From assembly GCA_042408875.1 (NCBI GenBank), contig JBHOQS010000015.1:79299-143298 (forward strand): a stretch of 64,000 nt of DNA, written 5' to 3'. Source of the DNA: Chloroflexota bacterium (GTDB lineage: Bacteria > Chloroflexota > UBA11872 > JBHOQS01). Under the pieces are notes generated by a model that saw nothing but the letters and a program-made list of their open reading frames with translations, did no database searches and was not told the origin of the DNA. A program made the translations under genes and the position numbers. This document shows, in pieces, positions 4,219 to 61,126 of the stretch; within the stretch, counting starts at the first letter, position 1; each line of letters begins with the position of its first letter.

Positions 4219-4387
4219 CGGCAAACGGCACGGCCGGCGGGCGAGCAGCGACGCTCCTGGCTACTGCTCGACCTCCGCGAGCGATCAGTGCGAGACGAGC
4301 AAAGACGAGCAACGACTGAGACGAGCAAAGACTGGCAAGGTCTACTCAACACGTAGACCCGGTACCTGGACGTGAAGGAGCATAACG

Positions 4388-23243: not shown

Positions 23244-23340
23244 CTCCTTTTATATTTATTTTATTATATTTATTTTTTTATTATATTATTTTTTATTATG
23301 CTATTTATGTTAGCTTGCATTATCTTTTGGTTGTATTATT
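23244..23340. promoter_or_regulatory. Extreme AT-rich island upstream of ino1 operon (probable promoter / unwinding element)
   Basis: About 95 bp almost entirely A/T in a GC-rich genome, directly upstream of the ino1 RBS and downstream of the ArsR gene stop. Confidence 0.5.
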
Positions 23341-23444: not shown

Positions 23445-23831
23445 CTACCCAAGCGGCGCCTGTGCTTCCTCACCGACACGTGAAGTCCCGGCAGCGTTCT
23501 GGAGGCCTAGCTCGGGCACCGGCCCGCCTGCCGTGCCAGTGTAGACGAGCGCTTCGAGCTGCCGCAGGGCGCTGTGGAGGACAGCGTGGTCCAGCGTGCA
23601 GTAGACCTGCCGGCCCAGCTTCTGCGTGCGCACCAGCCCTGCCTTGCGCAGAATACGCAGGTGCCACGACATCAGCGGCTGGCTGATCCGCAGCGCACGC
23701 CCTAGCTCAGATACCGTCGTCTCGCCTGAGCGCGCCAGATGCTGCACCACCCGCAGGCGCGAGCGATCGCCCAGCGCCTTGAACAGCGCAGCCAGCTCGC
23801 GCAGCGCAGCCGCATCAGCCCCGCGTGACAT
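23445..23831 (-). CDS. ArsR/SmtB family transcriptional regulator
   Basis: LKALGDRSRLRVVQHLARSGETTVSELGRALRISQPLMSWHLRILRKAGLV winged-helix HTH typical of ArsR. Confidence 0.8.
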   Translation of the reverse strand: MSRGADAAALRELAALFKALGDRSRLRVVQHLARSGETTVSELGRALRISQPLMSWHLRILRKAGLVRTQKLGRQVYCTLDHAVLHSALRQLEALVYTGTAGGPVPELGLQNAAGTSRVGEEAQAPLG

Positions 23832-24195
23832 GCCGAACCGAACTCTTCCAGGTGACTCGTTCCGTCGCGCCTACCATCTCTCCGGTGCGCGCCCAGCCCG
23901 GATGCATCAAGCGGCGTTGATCAAACAAGTATTGAATAAACGACTATTAATTAAACACTCGTTGATGCATTCCAGCGTGTATGCTACCGTAGCGCTGGAC
24001 GCCTGTCAAGCACAGCGCCTGCGGCCGTGGGTCAGGGCGAGGGCTGCCCGGCGCGCCGCCGGCAGCGCCCGCTGGAGGTGCCAGCGGGCCGCTTGCATCC
24101 CTCGCCAGAACGGCCTACCATAGCAGCCGAAGGCTAGCTGCCGAACGCTGGCGGCTACAGGCTACACATCAGGAACGCAGTGCGATTGGCTCGCC

Positions 24196-24231
24196 GCAGC
24201 GATCGCTGGACCGGCAGCGATCGCTGGACCG
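24196..24231. repeat. Two tandem 18-bp repeats each containing the perfect palindrome CAGCGATCGCTG
   Basis: gcagcgatcgctggaccg x2 immediately upstream of the GGAGG RBS of the E1 alpha gene. Confidence 0.7.
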
Positions 24232-24252
24232 GCAGCGAAGGAGGCAGGACCG

Positions 24253-27684: not shown

Positions 27685-28926
27685 GTGGCTATTGCGGTAA
27701 GCAAGCAAACGGTGCGCATCCCCTGGGCAGCGTTCTTCGGCGATACGGAGATCGAGCTGGCGTTCCCGGCGGAGTGGGACGTCGAGGTCTATCCGCCAGC
27801 GGACGGGCCGGACATCGGTGAGGATGGCATCGCCCAGGCGTTCGCCAACCCTATCGGCACGCCGCGCCTCGCTGAGCTCGCCCATGGCCGGCGCTCGGCG
27901 GTTATCATCGTGGATGACCTCTCTCGGCCGACCCCGGCGCACCGCCTGGTCCCGCGTGTGCTGGCCGAGCTCGAAGCTGGCGGTCTCAGCCGCGACCAGA
28001 TGCTCGTCATCATGGGCGTGGCCAACCACCGGCCGCTCACTCGCGAGGACATGGTGAAGAAGCTGGGCGAAGCGGTCGTCTCTACCGTACGCGTGAAGAA
28101 CCACTTCTCCTGGGCGCATTGCGCGTATATCGGCACGACCTCCCGCGGCACGCCAGTGGCGCTGAACAAAGACTTCCTCGCTGCCGATCTGAAGATCCTG
28201 GTCGGGAGCATTGTCCCGCACGGGAAGCCCGGTTTCGCCGGTGGCGCTAAGCTGGTGCTTCCCGGCGTGGCCTCGATCGACACTGCCTACGCCTGGCACG
28301 GTCCCGACGGCCCGCCGGGCGGGCTGATGAAGGTGGAGACCGAGGCGCGCCTGGACGCCGAAGAGGCGGCGCGCATGGCCGGGGTTGATGCCATCGTCAA
28401 TGTGATCCCGAACTCACGGCGTGGCATCGCCGGACTGGTCGTGGGTGACCTCGTGGCGGCCCATCGCGCTGGTGTGGCTATTGCCCAGCGCGTCTTCGCC
28501 ACGCGAGTGCCTGCCGGCGTGGATATCGGCGTCTTCACGGCATATCCAAAGGACACCGAGTACTGCCAGCTCAGCCTGGCGTTCAATGTGTGGTGGTCGG
28601 CGGCAGAGCCGATCGTGCACGAGCGCGGCACGATCGTAGCTTGCACCGCCGCCAGCGAGGGCCCGGGCTTCCATTCACTGATGGGGCCGGGGATGCGCCT
28701 GGGCGGTGAGTGGGGCGCCATGCGCAATCTCCGCCGTCCCTTCATGCCGCGGCAGATGATCATCTTCTCCCCCGGCATCTGCGAGAACGATCTCTCTCCA
28801 GAGGCACGTGCCGAGATGACCCTGTGCCGCACCTGGTCTTGCGTAGTTGAGCGGCTGCGCGAGCTCCACGGCAGCTCTGCCCGCGTGGCCGTCTTCCCGT
28901 GCTCGGCCATGCAGCTCGCTGCCTGA
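27685..28926 (+). CDS. LarA-like (DUF2088, lactate racemase family) protein
   Basis: GTG start with AGGAGAGAG RBS 4 nt upstream; IIVDDLSRPTP and HGKPGFAGGAK motifs resemble LarA family signatures as I recall them (not aligned). Confidence 0.65.
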   Translation: MAIAVSKQTVRIPWAAFFGDTEIELAFPAEWDVEVYPPADGPDIGEDGIAQAFANPIGTPRLAELAHGRRSAVIIVDDLSRPTPAHRLVPRVLAELEAGGLSRDQMLVIMGVANHRPLTREDMVKKLGEAVVSTVRVKNHFSWAHCAYIGTTSRGTPVALNKDFLAADLKILVGSIVPHGKPGFAGGAKLVLPGVASIDTAYAWHGPDGPPGGLMKVETEARLDAEEAARMAGVDAIVNVIPNSRRGIAGLVVGDLVAAHRAGVAIAQRVFATRVPAGVDIGVFTAYPKDTEYCQLSLAFNVWWSAAEPIVHERGTIVACTAASEGPGFHSLMGPGMRLGGEWGAMRNLRRPFMPRQMIIFSPGICENDLSPEARAEMTLCRTWSCVVERLRELHGSSARVAVFPCSAMQLAA

Positions 28927-28934
28927 GCGTCTCC

Positions 28935-28966
28935 TCGTACAATAGACACATCGTACAATAGACACA
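28935..28966. repeat. Tandem direct repeat 16 bp x2 (tcgtacaatagacaca)
   Basis: Perfect duplication just downstream of the LarA-like stop, within a lower-GC 439-bp intergenic region. Confidence 0.8.
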
Positions 28967-29022
28967 GTGGCGTTGTCCGGTGATAACGCCCCTGTGCTTG
29001 AAACGTGCTCCTGTCCAGAATG

Positions 29023-29037
29023 TTTACTACTAGTAAA
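29023..29037. promoter_or_regulatory. Perfect palindrome TTTACTA-C-TAGTAAA (candidate operator)
   Basis: 7-bp inverted arms around a central C in the leader of the sugar ABC transporter operon. Confidence 0.4.
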
Positions 29038-29230
29038 TTGATAAATGGTGCACATCAGCACAAGCCACTGCACCGATTGTGTCCTTTTCAGGGATTCAGT
29101 AGAATAGCCTATGCCTTATAGGCGTCACATGCTTTACAGACAGGCAGAAACGTCTGGCACACCGCAGGCGCTCTCTGCCATGAGGTTTGCGACGCACTGT
29201 ACGACATACGTACGATATACTGTCCTCTAT

Positions 29231-29294
29231 GAAGACACGCATGGCGCGGAAGACACGCATGGCGCGGAAGACACACATGGCGCGTCAAGACACG
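29231..29294. repeat. Tandem 18-bp repeat, about 3.5 copies (gaagacacgcatggcgcg)
   Basis: Copies at 29231, 29249, 29267 (one mismatch) and a partial fourth; non-coding, upstream of the permease start. Confidence 0.8.
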
Positions 29295-29365
29295 TTGTTT
29301 CGACGTATGAGGTAGTCGTGCCGCTGCTGCCGCAGAGGCAGCGCCGCTGGAAAACTGGAGGTGCT

Positions 29366-30307
29366 ATGTCGGCTGACCGTGTTCTGGCACCGCCATCACC
29401 GCTCACCATAGCGCGACGAGCACGCTGGTCTGCCCTGGGGCCGGACTGGAAGATCGGGTACGCGCTGGTTCTACCGGTCGTCAGCATCCTGCTCGCATTC
29501 ATCGCTGTTCCCTTCCTGACCTCGATCTTGATGAGCTTCCAGGACATACGAGCCGGCGGGGACGCGGTGTTCGTCGGCCTGCGCAACTACACCAGTCTGC
29601 TGTTCGGTGCGAACCGGGCGCGCTTCCTCAATAGCGTGTGGGTGAGCTTCCTGTATACGTTCGCCGCTATTGTGTTGAAGTTCATCCTGGGTATGACGCT
29701 GGCGCTGGTGCTGCATAGCGCTATCCGCGGCCGCAACTTCTTCCGCGCGCTCCTCTTCCTGCCGTGGTCTATCCCCGCTGTGGTCAGCGCGTACGCCTGG
29801 AAGTGGATCTACGACGATATGCGCGGCGTCCTGAACGTGGAGCTCAGCTACTTCGGCCTGATCAAGGAGCCCATTCTCTGGACTGCCGACATCAACCTGG
29901 CGCTCTGGGCGGTGGTCGCAGCAGTAGTCTGGCAGGGCACGCCCTTCTGGACTATGACCTTCCTCGCCGGGCTCCAGTCGATCCCTCATGAGCTCTACGA
30001 TGCCGCGCATATCGACGGCGCCGGCGCCTTGCAGAGCTTCTTTTATGTCACATTACCCAGCCTGGCCAATGTGATCCTGGTGACGGTGCTGCTCTCGACT
30101 ATCTGGACAGCCAACGGCCTCCAGTACGTGTACATCCTCACGGCGGGCGGGCCGGCGAACAGCACAGAGATCTTCCCCATGCTAGCGCTGAACCTGGGTC
30201 TGCGGGCGTACGACCTGGGCATGGGGGCCACGGTGCCGCTGATGTTCTTCCCGTTCTTTGCCGTGCTGATCGTTATTCTGACCAGGCGCATGCTTCAGCA
30301 TGAGTAG
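29366..30307 (+). CDS. ABC transporter permease (MalF/UgpA-type sugar permease)
   Basis: ORF 29111..30307 trimmed to ATG 29366 with GGAGGT RBS; the upstream part of the ORF spans the tandem repeats; EAA-type loop region. Confidence 0.85.
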   Translation: MSADRVLAPPSPLTIARRARWSALGPDWKIGYALVLPVVSILLAFIAVPFLTSILMSFQDIRAGGDAVFVGLRNYTSLLFGANRARFLNSVWVSFLYTFAAIVLKFILGMTLALVLHSAIRGRNFFRALLFLPWSIPAVVSAYAWKWIYDDMRGVLNVELSYFGLIKEPILWTADINLALWAVVAAVVWQGTPFWTMTFLAGLQSIPHELYDAAHIDGAGALQSFFYVTLPSLANVILVTVLLSTIWTANGLQYVYILTAGGPANSTEIFPMLALNLGLRAYDLGMGATVPLMFFPFFAVLIVILTRRMLQHE

Positions 30308-30391
30308 CGCCGGGACCGCCGGGCTGAAGCCCGGAGTCGCGCTGGCGCCTGCGCCGTGGAAGAGCGAGGAGCAAGAAGCACAAGGAGACAG

Positions 30392-31291
30392 ATGACGGTG
30401 GAGCGAGCGACGACGCTGGGAACAGGGATGCGGGCGCGGAGCTCCGTGCTGGCCGTCCTGACCCACAAGAACCGCCACTGGCTGGCGCTGGCGTACGTCA
30501 TCGTGGTCGTGGCCAGCCTGTGGGCGATCTTCCCCTTCTACTGGATGCTGCTTACGTCGGTGCGCCATGAAAGCGAGATGTACAGCCGCGATCCGGCGCT
30601 GTGGCCGAAGTCTTTCACGTTGCAGCATTACCATTCCGCGCTGTTTGCATCAGGCTTCCCGCGCTTCTTTGCGAACAGCTTCATCGTCGCTGCCAGCACG
30701 ACGGTGGTCTCCGTTATCGCCGGAGCGATGGCGGCCTACGCGCTCACCCGGCTCCGCTTCGCCGGCCGTCCGCTGATCGCCCGCATGCTGGTGGTCAGCT
30801 ATCTGGCCCCTGGTTCAGTGCTGTTCATCCCGCTCTTCGCCCTGTTCGTGTCCCTCCGCCTCACCAATACGCTGCACGGCCTGGTGCTGGCGCACCTGAC
30901 GTTCACCGTGCCGTTCTCCACCTGGATGCTGATGGGCTATTTCCGCACCATCCCGGTCGAGCTCGAAGAGGCCGCGCTTGTGGACGGGGCTACGCGCTGG
31001 GGCGCCCTGTGGCGCGTGGTCGCTCCGCTCTCGGCGCCGGCGCTGGTCGTTGTCGCGGTGTTCTCGTTCACGCTCTCATGGAACGAATTCCTCTATGCCC
31101 TGGTGCTGGTCCAGCGCAAGGAGCTCATGACCGCGCCGGTCGGGCTGACCTTCTTCCAGACCGCCGATCTCTTCTACTGGGGCGCGATCATGGCGGCGTC
31201 TACCCTGATGGCGCTCCTGCCGGTGCTGCTGTATATCATCGGGCAACGCTGGGTGATCGCTGGCTGGACTGCCGGCGCAGTCAAGCACTAG
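30392..31291 (+). CDS. ABC transporter permease (MalG/UgpE-type sugar permease)
   Basis: ORF 30356..31291 trimmed to ATG 30392 with AGGAG RBS; EAA loop VELEEAALVDGATRWGALWRVVAP. Confidence 0.85.
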   Translation: MTVERATTLGTGMRARSSVLAVLTHKNRHWLALAYVIVVVASLWAIFPFYWMLLTSVRHESEMYSRDPALWPKSFTLQHYHSALFASGFPRFFANSFIVAASTTVVSVIAGAMAAYALTRLRFAGRPLIARMLVVSYLAPGSVLFIPLFALFVSLRLTNTLHGLVLAHLTFTVPFSTWMLMGYFRTIPVELEEAALVDGATRWGALWRVVAPLSAPALVVVAVFSFTLSWNEFLYALVLVQRKELMTAPVGLTFFQTADLFYWGAIMAASTLMALLPVLLYIIGQRWVIAGWTAGAVKH

Positions 31292-31369
31292 CACGCGTTG
31301 TCGAGGGTAGCAGGCATCAATAGTCCTCATGCTGACATCATGCCAACAATCATCAAGGGAGGCACACAG

Positions 31370-32704
31370 ATGCGTACCGCATTGACGCGACGAACGGCCC
31401 TCGGTCTGTTCAGCGCCGGGATGGGAGCTGGCCTGGCGGCTGCCTGCGCACCCGGCGCAGGCGGGGGGCAGGTCACGACCGGCGGAAAGGGCGCCCAGAT
31501 CACCGTCTGGCGCGGCAGCGACTACATCCCCGAGGTCAATGCCTACTTAAAGGAGATGTGGGAGCAGTACGCCAGGGAGAAGGAGCTCAAAGTCGCCCTG
31601 GAAGAGAAGAGCGGCAACTGGAACGACCAGCTCATTGCCGCTGTCCAGGCCGGTACGCCGCCCGATATTGTGGGTGTGTTCGACTACCAGACCCAGTACT
31701 GGCGCAGCCAGGGCCAGACCATCGATGTCACCGACATGGTCACCCGCTACCGCAGCGCGGAAGGCGGCTTCTTCGACTATGTGAACGCCACCACGATGCA
31801 CCAGGGCAAGTACTACGGTGTGCCGCTGGCGGTGAATGCCTGGCCCTTCCACGTGCGTCAGGACATCCTGGACCGGCAGGGCGGGAAGTGGCCGGATAGC
31901 TGGGAACAGTTCCGCGCCATCTCGCGGGCCGTGACCAGAGCGCCGGACTTCTACGCCTACGGCATGACCCTCGGCCGGACGAACGACGTGAACAACCACT
32001 TCCTGGGTACCTTGTGGACCTTCGGTGGCAAGCTCCAGAACGACGATGGCAGCCTGGCCGTGGATGCGCGCAACAGCGCCTGGCTGGAGACGTTGAACCT
32101 CATCAAGAGAATGTATGAGGAGGACAAGATCATCCCGCCGGGCGCGATCAACTGGGACGACGGCGCCAACAACAACGCCTACCAGGGCGAGCAGATCGCC
32201 TGGACCTCTAACCCCACCAGCATCTACACCTGGCTGGCGCGCAATAACAAGCCGGATATCCTGAAGGCCACGAAGTTCTACCCCTATCCGAAGGGGCCGG
32301 CAGGCCAGTACGGCCAGGTCGATGTGTGGGCACACGTGATCTTCAAAGCGAGTAAAGCGCAGGCAGAGGCGAAGGGCGCGCTCGAATACGTGCTGCGGCC
32401 CGAGCGCTACAAGACCTACATCGAGAATCTCAAGGGCCGCTTCCTGCCGGTGTACAAGAACTTCGTGGACCTGCCAATGTGGAAGGAGAACCCGGCGTAC
32501 GCCGAGTATGGCAACATCGCCCGGAACGGCCGCATCATGGCCTATTCCTCGTCGCCGTCGCCGGCATACTCCGATATTACGACGAAGTTCCTGATCGGCG
32601 ATATGATGCAGGACCTACTGGTCAAAAAACAGACGCCCCAGCAGGCGTTGCAGACTTTTGTCGAGGCAGCCAAGGCAATCTACGAACGCTACCGGGGACG
32701 CTAG
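31370..32704 (+). CDS. ABC transporter solute-binding protein (sugar type), Tat/lipoprotein-like signal
   Basis: ORF 31298..32704 trimmed to ATG 31370 with GGGAGG RBS; MRTALTRRTALGLFSAGMGAGLAAAC signal with lipobox. Confidence 0.85.
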   Translation: MRTALTRRTALGLFSAGMGAGLAAACAPGAGGGQVTTGGKGAQITVWRGSDYIPEVNAYLKEMWEQYAREKELKVALEEKSGNWNDQLIAAVQAGTPPDIVGVFDYQTQYWRSQGQTIDVTDMVTRYRSAEGGFFDYVNATTMHQGKYYGVPLAVNAWPFHVRQDILDRQGGKWPDSWEQFRAISRAVTRAPDFYAYGMTLGRTNDVNNHFLGTLWTFGGKLQNDDGSLAVDARNSAWLETLNLIKRMYEEDKIIPPGAINWDDGANNNAYQGEQIAWTSNPTSIYTWLARNNKPDILKATKFYPYPKGPAGQYGQVDVWAHVIFKASKAQAEAKGALEYVLRPERYKTYIENLKGRFLPVYKNFVDLPMWKENPAYAEYGNIARNGRIMAYSSSPSPAYSDITTKFLIGDMMQDLLVKKQTPQQALQTFVEAAKAIYERYRGR

Positions 32705-53793: not shown

Positions 53794-54030
53794 GACCTCC
53801 TTCTATCCTCCTATCGCGTGCATTGCGTGCCACACGGTCACGCGTCTGCTAGCGAAGGCGCTTTAGCCCCTTTAGCATAGAAACAACGTATAGCAGGAAA
53901 CGTATAGCAGGATTCGTGCCATACGTGGCTACGAAGCCGAAGGCGGTCCCATGCGTCCCACGACGCGCCGGGCATACCGCTCCACCGCCCCGGTAGAACT
54001 TCTCGGATAGATGTTGGATAGATGGCAGCG

Positions 54031-54093
54031 ACATTGTTCATTAAGACATTGCTCATTAAGACATTGTTCATTAATAAGACATTGTTCGTTAAG
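54031..54093. repeat. Tandem 15-bp repeat, 4 copies (acattgttcattaag, one with 3-bp insertion)
   Basis: Copies at 54031, 54046, 54061, 54079 in a low-GC stretch; additional short duplications at 53885..53913 and 54005..54023. Confidence 0.8.
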
Positions 54094-54269
54094 ATGATCG
54101 TCTCGTCTGTGAGCCGGTCGAGCAGGGAGCGGTCGTGTGAGACGAGAAGCAGCGTGCCGGCGAAGTGTCTGAGCGCTGCTTCGATCTGCTCGCGGGTCGG
54201 GATATCCAGATGGGTCGGCTCGCCCAGCAGCCGGACGTCCGGCTGCGTACCATGGATTACTTCCAGCAT
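54075..54269 (-). pseudogene. Remnant of an ABC-type ATPase (Walker B / D-loop / H-loop region only)
   Basis: ORF 53838..54269 begins MLEVIHGTQPDVRLLGEPTHLDIPTREQIEAALRHFAGTLLLVSHDRSLLDRLTDETIIL, resembling the C-terminal end of an ABC nucleotide-binding domain with Walker B Asp replaced by Gly; no Walker A or signature motif; then runs into the tandem repeat. Confidence 0.4.
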
Positions 54270-58952: not shown

Positions 58953-58994
58953 TACTGCCTATACATACTGCCTATACAGCATACTGCCTATACA
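58953..58994. repeat. Three direct copies of tactgcctataca
   Basis: Copies at 58953, 58966, 58982 in the intergenic region upstream of the aminotransferase gene. Confidence 0.8.
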
Positions 58995-59097
58995 GGGCTC
59001 TTCCAGGGCAAAAGCTACTTCTTCCCTGCACACCTCACAGGGATTTGGCGCAACAAGAGTCCTTCGGCAGTGCGACGTTCCTGCCACACCTGCAGAA

Positions 59098-60958: not shown

Positions 60959-61126
60959 TGAGGGCCGCGACGCCGCAACGCTCTTTCGCAACGCTCTTTA
61001 GAGAGGCGGCTGCGGTGCTCGTACGGCGCCGCAGACATCACAGCGGCTTCGAGGCAGCCCGGACGCGAGCGAGGCCCCCCGTGGAGAGGGCCTCGTTGTG
61101 CCCGGAAGATTGGATACCCGTAGAAG

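Follow-up and report, generated by a model that had tools for sequence, protein, structure and literature searches.

The 439-bp leader of a sugar ABC transporter operon in an uncultured Chloroflexota bacterium is best explained as an ordinary terminator–promoter–5′ untranslated region (5′UTR) spacer that carries recent slippage duplications, which are probably near-neutral; we put the probability of this reading at about 0.78. Its three tandem repeats (16 bp × 2, 11 bp × 2 and 18 bp × 3.5) would be young, lineage-specific duplications of local sequence, most likely made by replication slippage or by a microhomology-mediated route, and they would persist since non-coding DNA tolerates changes that break reading frames. 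The conserved and presumably functional parts of the leader are instead a hairpin, a promoter-like block and the Shine–Dalgarno sequence with its start codon (29357–29368). The original prediction had taken the number of distinct repeats in one leader as the sign of a complex regulatory region. Against this proposal stand the absence of the repeats from relatives, a palindrome at the chance level, similar arrays in other spacers of the same DNA and a repeat density that is no clear outlier.

The leader and its repeats

We analysed a 64-kb stretch of DNA (hereafter referred to as the window), in which the leader extends from the stop codon of a LarA-like gene to the start codon of a permease gene (Table 1). 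The LarA-like gene is the last in a cluster encoding 2-oxoacid dehydrogenase E1α, E1β and E2, and the permease is the first gene of an operon of two BPD_transp_1 permeases followed by an SBP_bac_1 binding protein. The GC content is 0.49–0.54 in the leader versus 0.62–0.72 in the flanking genes; both the extent of the predicted lower-GC leader upstream of a sugar ABC operon and its drop in GC content were thereby confirmed. Among the annotated neighbours, no regulator gene adjoins the operon, and the nearest one, an ArsR/HTH_20 gene, lies about 5 kb upstream of it with a conserved AT-rich site of its own.

The 16-bp tandem duplication, the palindrome and the 18-bp repeat in about 3.5 copies, on which the original prediction was built, are all present at the positions that it gave. 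An 11-bp tandem pair and a strong hairpin, absent from that prediction, also lie in the leader. The second copy of the 16-bp duplication forms the outer 5′ arm of this hairpin, and no flanking microhomology is evident for the duplication, so that simple slippage is less certain in its case. In the 18-bp array, copy 3 departs by one mismatch from copies 1 and 2, which are identical (copy identities of 100%, 100% and 94%), and the last copy is partial and diverged; the array ends 72 nt upstream of ATG 29366, within the predicted 5′UTR. Because the copies are identical or nearly so, the repeats appear to be of recent origin.

Tandem Repeats Finder (TRF) gave scores of 64 and 105 for the leader arrays, with copy identities of 94–100%, and tandem identity in the leader runs for up to 26 nt, whereas none of 500 dinucleotide shuffles exceeded 11 nt. 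The tandem repeats of the leader are far beyond chance. For the palindrome, we searched shuffled leaders for perfect inverted repeats (arms ≥ 7 nt, loop ≤ 4 nt), and 13.8% of them hold an equal or better one, which places it at the chance level. A search for the palindrome elsewhere, proposed in the original prediction and run within the 64 kb, returned this single site. Neither the 16-bp nor the 18-bp unit occurs again within the window, and a BLAST comparison of the leader with the rest of the window yielded 13-nt chance matches only. The leader is identical at every base in an independent Logan assembly (SRR24490439), and its arrays are therefore not an assembly artefact.

Table 1 Features of the leader, its flanking genes and the other non-coding arrays of the window
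Feature	Position	Strand	Details
Lar_N-domain (LarA-like) gene, upstream	27685–28926	+	Pfam PF09861, E = 3e-47
Leader (spacer), 439 bp, non-coding	28927–29365	+	From LarA-like TGA to permease ATG 29366
Perfect 16-bp tandem duplication, × 2	28935–28966		TCGTACAATAGACACA; Tandem Repeats Finder and repeat finder
Strong hairpin	28960–28998	+	About 35 nt past the LarA-like stop; ΔG −21.8 kcal/mol, z = −4.64
Palindrome, 7-1-7	29023–29037		TTTACTA-C-TAGTAAA; single site in 64 kb; AT-rich patch
Promoter-like block	29077–29105	+	TTGTGT-17-TAGAAT; conserved island
11-bp tandem repeat, × 2	29199–29220		GTACGACATAC / GTACGATATAC; Tandem Repeats Finder/repeat finder
18-bp tandem array, × 3.5	29231–29294		GAAGACACGCATGGCGCG; Tandem Repeats Finder and repeat finder
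Shine–Dalgarno sequence	29357–29363	+	GGAGGTG; 2 nt before ATG; conserved with the ATG in all orthologues
ABC transporter permease, 313 aa	29366–30307	+	Pfam PF00528
Other non-coding array	4303–4334		TRF
Other non-coding array	23248–23306		TRF
Other non-coding array	24196–24238		TRF
Other non-coding array	53885–53912		TRF
Other non-coding array	54030–54094		TRF
Other non-coding array	58953–58995		TRF
Other non-coding array	60974–60999		TRF

Predicted translation start of the permease

An open reading frame spanning 29111–30307 runs through the repeats into the permease and translates the 18-bp array as EDTHGA × 3. It is extremely improbable that this frame is used, with translation starting at ATG 29111, perhaps on a leaderless mRNA, to give a permease with an 85-residue N-terminal extension. 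Such a reading would account for the uninterrupted frame and for a repeat period that is a multiple of three, and it would suit the location of ATG 29111 at the predicted transcription start, 6 nt past the −10-like TAGAAT as judged from the coordinates, but codon usage, homologues and orthologues all count against it. Under a codon log-odds model trained on the window's own genes, 29111–29365 scores −0.121 per codon, below every one of 165 same-size windows from genuine genes (minimum −0.016), and its GC3 of 0.58, versus 0.82 in the flanking genes, is non-genic. The 120 best homologues of the permease are 292–366 residues long, and all but three of those listed (328, 352 and 366 residues) fall within 292–318 residues. 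Eleven aligned homologues start at M86 of the long frame, which is ATG 29366, and the gene callers in public contigs, including the Logan contig, choose the equivalent ATG. The 29111 frame contains in-frame stops in 5/5 orthologous leaders, and the ATG that corresponds to 29111 is out of frame in one of them (L051).

In addition, a conserved GGAGGTG precedes ATG 29366, and the 85-residue stretch has no match to a Pfam family. On these sequence grounds the leader repeats are non-coding and translation is predicted to start at 29366. Homologue lengths, orthologue stops, codon score, GC3 and the conserved Shine–Dalgarno sequence thus agree with the start site and the non-coding status originally predicted, and the start at 29111 that was named there as the observation to the contrary is opposed by codon usage, homologue starts and orthologue stops. 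Annotation pipelines may nevertheless stretch the permease reading frame to 29111 and thereby create a spurious N terminus of EDTHGA repeats.

Comparison with orthologous leaders

We obtained syntenic LarA-like/leader/permease loci through a protein search followed by contig look-up. Their permeases are 94% identical to the present one in L050–L054 (four samples and one metagenome-assembled genome), 89% in L055 and L130 and 80% in L056, and the leader comparison covers about four independent lineages. The synteny of the LarA-like and permease genes is kept in L050–L055 and L130. The GTDB species representatives, in which the permease is 56–66% identical at best and has other neighbours, were useless for leader alignment.

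The orthologous leaders measure 369 bp (94% permease identity), 257 bp (89%) and at least 264 bp (80%). In the alignment with the closest of them (369 bp), 234/439 positions are identical, despite 94% identity between the permeases, and the leader appears by this measure to be fast-evolving. None of the three tandem repeats, nor the palindrome, occurs in the syntenic leaders at 94%, 89% or 80% permease identity, and TRF detected no array in any of these leaders. The 18-bp array, the 11-bp pair and their surroundings fall in alignment gaps. The 18-bp array aligns as an insertion, at whose site the orthologues keep one related copy (..GGGACGCATCGTT..), and this arrangement suggests that the array expanded around one ancestral copy. 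The 16-bp duplication and the AT-rich patch with the palindrome align to unrelated orthologue sequence, which is GC-rich opposite the palindrome, and relative to L051 the leader has several lineage-specific insertions. The palindrome would have arisen by chance within an AT-rich patch peculiar to this lineage.

As judged from these alignments, the absence of the repeats in relatives means that they are not ancestral, while they may still have an effect in this strain. The original prediction had pointed to orthologous loci as the place to look for copy-number variation; the repeats and the palindrome are missing there, which argues against a conserved regulatory device.

A second locus in the window records a gain in copy number. 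Directly upstream of the E1α Shine–Dalgarno sequence lies an 18-bp × 2.4 array (24196–24238), which is present in 1.4 copies, one copy fewer, in L132 and L134 (E1α 98% identical) and is absent in L130 and L131 (E1α 96% identical). In the relatives' 1.4-copy state, an 8-nt sequence recurs directly at a spacing of 18 nt, the kind of substrate on which slippage is expected to act; partial terminal copies are present in the 18-bp arrays. Upstream of E1α, an AT-rich block and a promoter-like element, TTGCAT-17-TACCAT, are conserved in 5/5 sequences. The alignment at this locus therefore indicates that the promoter- and operator-like elements of the clade are conserved islands, and that the tandem arrays are single-lineage gains.

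Conserved elements of the leader

The hairpin downstream of the LarA-like gene is more stable than chance would provide (0/200 shuffles as stable), and L051 and L055 each have a hairpin at the matching position, in which both partners of some pairs have changed. A terminator scan reported nothing, as no T-run follows the stem; the hairpin probably ends or stabilizes the upstream transcript without a U-tract.

The promoter-like block, consisting of TTGTGT (29077–29082), a 17-nt spacer and TAGAAT (29100–29105), is the best-conserved island of the leader in the comparison of the window with L051. It reads TTGTGT-17-TATCAT in L050 and L054, and TACAAT is kept in L055. TTGTGT matches the σ70 consensus at 3/6 positions and TAGAAT at 5/6, under the 9/12 threshold of the consensus promoter/terminator scan, which found 0 sites. 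Acting as a σ70-like promoter, the block would start the mRNA near 29112 (predicted range about 29111–29113), with a 5′UTR of about 250 nt. On this layout, 16 bp of the sequence ahead of the promoter and about 65 bp of the 5′UTR would come from the repeats. Further short conserved islands lie at 29143–29158 and 29296–29312.

Tandem arrays across the window

We counted TRF arrays with a period of at least 9 and a score of at least 50 throughout the 64-kb window, and divided the window into coding and non-coding DNA with a codon-usage heuristic gene finder, which assigned 8.2 kb to the non-coding fraction. This fraction holds 9/11 arrays, a density of 1.10 per kb, compared with 0.036 per kb for the coding fraction (binomial P = 4e-7), and dinucleotide-shuffled intergenic DNA contains 0.09 arrays on average. 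The two arrays in coding DNA repeat every 21 and 27 nt, both divisible by three, as selection against duplications that break the frame would predict. Several arrays of the window precede a start codon by no more than 100 nt. No motif is common to the nine non-coding array units (P = 0.5); an apparent AGAC[A/T] motif that we had seen by eye across array units was rejected.

The window has 0.125 high-identity short-period arrays per kb. Control loci totalling about 760 kb have fewer (Poisson P = 3e-6): 0.023 per kb across 352 kb taken from 47 other genomes, and 0.005 per kb across 412 kb of unrelated metagenome contigs. This genome would accordingly make or retain tandem duplications at an unusually high density, an enrichment sampled here from 64 kb of its length. 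Given that background, the leader does not stand out clearly: from the rest of the window's non-coding DNA, 0.40 arrays are expected in 439 bp, and two are found (P = 0.06). L130 has intergenic arrays of its own, which are different ones.

Scanned against JGI metagenome contigs, the 18-mer matched at 73 sites, each a single copy in unrelated and apparently coding DNA. Several of these sites share one recurring conserved sequence context, and the scan revealed no tandem copies, no leader homologue and no copy-number variant of the locus. The wide search for the 18-bp unit that the original prediction had envisaged thus yields no dispersed family, the unit being absent elsewhere in the window and single-copy in its metagenome matches.

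Alternative explanations

Operators usually take the form of direct repeats or palindromes, and the original prediction may be put in its strongest form as arrays of sites, in which the repeats and the palindrome bind one or more transcription factors and place the sugar ABC operon under multi-input control. All of the features sit in the 400 bp preceding the operon, the 11-bp pair is in helical phase, and by eye a loose CGTACrATAkAC-like core seems common to the 16-mer and the 11-mer pair. We nonetheless consider operator arrays unlikely, as the candidate sites are missing from the orthologous leaders at all three levels of permease identity while the promoter-like block and the Shine–Dalgarno sequence are conserved. 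Moreover, the 16- and 18-bp periods do not match the helical repeat, the palindrome is a chance-level single site, the nearest regulator gene is the distant ArsR/HTH_20 gene, and similar arrays with unrelated units occupy many other intergenic regions. The repeats might alternatively serve as a contingency or tuning device, with slippage altering the number of 18-bp copies in the 5′UTR, and of units in similar arrays elsewhere, and with it mRNA stability, translation or promoter geometry, so that heritable, reversible expression variants would result. The location of the array downstream of the predicted −10 element and upstream of the start codon, the difference of exactly one unit at the E1α locus, the arrays close upstream of other start codons and an array density unusually high for a bacterium would all fit this idea. 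Units of 11–18 bp in 2–4 copies, however, slip far less than the 1–8-bp, many-copy tracts of phase-variable genes. The leader's units (11–18 nt in 2–3.5 copies) are unlike such tracts, both assemblies of the strain have identical copy numbers, and the 16-bp duplication sits about 145 nt upstream of the promoter-like block, beside the end of the upstream gene. On sequence evidence of this kind, a tuning role is unlikely.

We regard it as very unlikely that the leader encodes a structured cis-regulatory RNA, such as a riboswitch, an attenuator or a protein-binding leader, with the repeats in its fold. The predicted 5′UTR is long, small islands within it are conserved (29143–29158 and 29296–29312), and hairpins that partly pair with the Shine–Dalgarno sequence are predicted in all four lineages; yet a search of 28000–30500 with Rfam 15 at E values up to 10 returned none in the leader and two chance-level matches outside it, and the fold of the 5′UTR is ordinary (z = −1.06; 27/200 shuffles as stable). 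In the consensus helix near the Shine–Dalgarno sequence, 1/16 pairs has a two-sided change and the covariation term is +1.64, and the repeats, being absent in orthologues, cannot belong to a conserved fold. A compensatory-looking hairpin upstream of the Shine–Dalgarno sequence was dismissed after RNAalifold gave another helix with almost no covariation; the z-scores of the single sequences ranged from −0.9 to −2.5. The footprint of a mobile or foreign element, whether target-site duplications, a MITE or a decayed CRISPR-like array, has hardly any likelihood: the lower GC content and the lineage-specific insertions relative to L051 would be compatible with it, but apart from 13-nt chance matches no leader segment recurs in the window, the metagenome scan gave no sign of a dispersed 18-mer, the copies stand head to tail with no spacers, the units come from local ancestral sequence, and no transposase gene is nearby. 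Target-site duplications are further disfavoured by arrays that reach up to 4 copies and by a 16-bp length that is atypical for them, and the CRISPR-like array by the missing spacers. Replication-origin iterons were also considered and rejected, the locus lying inside ordinary operons with no GC-skew switch. Recent slippage duplication in an ordinary spacer thus stays our preferred explanation, with repeats that are probably neutral or nearly so and are probably not protein- or RNA-binding arrays.

Relation to known systems and implications

The closest known kind is VNTR-like intergenic tandem duplication. Like the intergenic VNTRs of bacteria (the MLVA loci), the leader's arrays consist of head-to-tail units of 10–20 bp with high identity in non-coding DNA, the units derive from local sequence, and copy number or presence differs between close relatives. 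They depart from bacterial VNTRs in their very low copy numbers (2–3.5) and their unusually high density (about 1.1 per kb of non-coding DNA), and from the mycobacterial MIRUs, which form a dispersed sequence family, in that the present units do not. Phase-variable tracts include the 7-bp repeats upstream of the Haemophilus hmw genes and the tetranucleotides upstream of Neisseria nadA and Moraxella uspA2. In such contingency loci, too, a tract separates the promoter region from the start codon of a surface or transport operon, whereas the unit here is much longer (18 bp) and few in copies, with the same length in two assemblies. Direct-repeat operators and iteron-like arrays, of the response-regulator and AraC types, resemble the leader in their adjacent upstream repeats and in the 11-bp helical spacing, and differ from it in that the repeats here are not conserved in orthologous promoters, have 16- and 18-bp periods that are out of phase and lack an adjacent regulator.

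A few prokaryotes have an extreme intergenic over-representation of medium-length tandem repeats (PMC4060949), among them Methanococcus voltae, M. aeolicus and Natrialba magadii, with units of 6–11 bp (PMC4060949). As in these organisms, medium-length repeats in our window are enriched in intergenic and not in coding DNA; the present case differs in concerning a member of the Chloroflexota, in its longer units (11–18 bp) and in the 64 kb sampled. Our literature searches on Chloroflexi turned up nothing specific on intergenic tandem repeats. The array pattern therefore has precedent in other prokaryotes, and we found none for Chloroflexota.

We take the repeats to be, most probably, recent mutational debris in a fast-evolving spacer, and they should be annotated neither as regulatory sites nor as coding sequence. 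In the window, high-identity short-period arrays are about 5–25 times more frequent than in control DNA; nearly all are intergenic, and they turn over between relatives whose compared proteins are 89–98% identical. It is improbable, on present sequence comparisons, that the lineage generates 11–18-bp duplications in promoters and 5′UTRs at a high rate as expression tuning knobs, or else through a lineage mutational bias. Under the tuning version, the 18-bp copy number in the 5′UTR would set transporter expression; under the weaker version, the array density would stem from a peculiarity, be it a defect or a bias, in how the lineage replicates or repairs its DNA. For the sugar ABC operon itself, the repeats would matter little. 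If the pattern holds genome-wide, the arrays would provide strain markers and a natural record of the slippage and duplication spectrum of this lineage.

Tandem arrays in the intergenic regions

Many of the other intergenic regions of the window also carry short tandem arrays, with periods of 13–18 bp, 2–4 copies and mostly 90–100% identity between copies. In non-coding DNA the arrays number about 1.1 per kb, compared with 0.036 per kb in coding DNA, and their density is 5–25 times that of the control loci (~760 kb). The units of the different arrays show no kinship to one another.

Intergenic tandem arrays of the window outside the leader, and other features
Positions	Feature	Details
4303–4334	Intergenic tandem array	
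23245–23340	Low-GC tract (~90 bp)	T/A-rich, overlapping 5/15-bp repeats
23248–23306	Intergenic tandem array	
23445–23831	ArsR/HTH_20 regulator gene	Minus strand, divergent from E1alpha
23917–23970 and 24093–24121	Two conserved elements	One an AT-rich block, TTGAATAAA..ATTAATTAAAC..TTGATG; the other TTGCAT-17-TACCAT
24196–24238	Intergenic tandem array	18 bp × 2.4, just upstream of the E1alpha Shine–Dalgarno sequence
29107–29123	Palindrome in the leader	GCCTAT-GCCTT-ATAGGC
29366–32704	ABC operon	Encodes two permeases plus one solute-binding protein (family 1)
53838–54269	Marginal coding potential	Codon score 9.4
53885–53912	Intergenic tandem array	
54030–54094	Intergenic tandem array	15 bp × 4.1, unit GACATTGTTCATTAA, inside 53838–54269
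58953–58995	Intergenic tandem array	
60974–60999	Intergenic tandem array	

The stretch at 53838–54269 may be a decayed gene or non-coding DNA.

Lineage-specific changes

The array upstream of E1alpha, in the 2-oxoacid dehydrogenase cluster, has 1.4 copies in relatives whose E1alpha is 98% identical (L132, ~1400–1450) and is absent where it is 96% identical (L130, ~2870–2918); the lineage of the window has gained one unit. The extremely low-GC tract (genome GC 66%), flanked by the genes for myo-inositol-1-phosphate synthase and the ArsR-family protein, is not kept in the relatives of 96–98% identity.

Within the leader, the predicted transcription start falls on the small hairpin-forming palindrome. 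The sequence around it is matched by a gap in the alignment with L051, the closest orthologue, so the palindrome is one more lineage-specific insertion. A public gene caller places a 38-residue minus-strand open reading frame in the orthologous leader (L051, 1602–1718; also L052 and L053). This frame has no Pfam match, sits where the leader is poorly conserved and is probably a spurious call.

The ABC operon has no ATPase subunit gene and presumably uses a shared ATPase encoded elsewhere; such sharing is common among CUT1-type sugar transporters. Downstream of the solute-binding protein gene, the relative with an 89% identical permease carries an array with 2.2 copies of a 42-bp unit (L130, 11518–11610, equivalent to L055, 6404–6496); the unit is purine- and pyrimidine-rich and contains an internal palindrome (AGGGAGAGGGGGGAGGACCCCCTCCCCTGCTCCCTCTCCCAG). 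The window has no such array, and its gap at this place spans only 92 bp.

Conserved elements upstream of E1alpha

The two elements between the ArsR/HTH_20 gene and E1alpha are kept in all five related sequences and are a likely operator and promoter of the 2-oxoacid dehydrogenase/LarA-like cluster.
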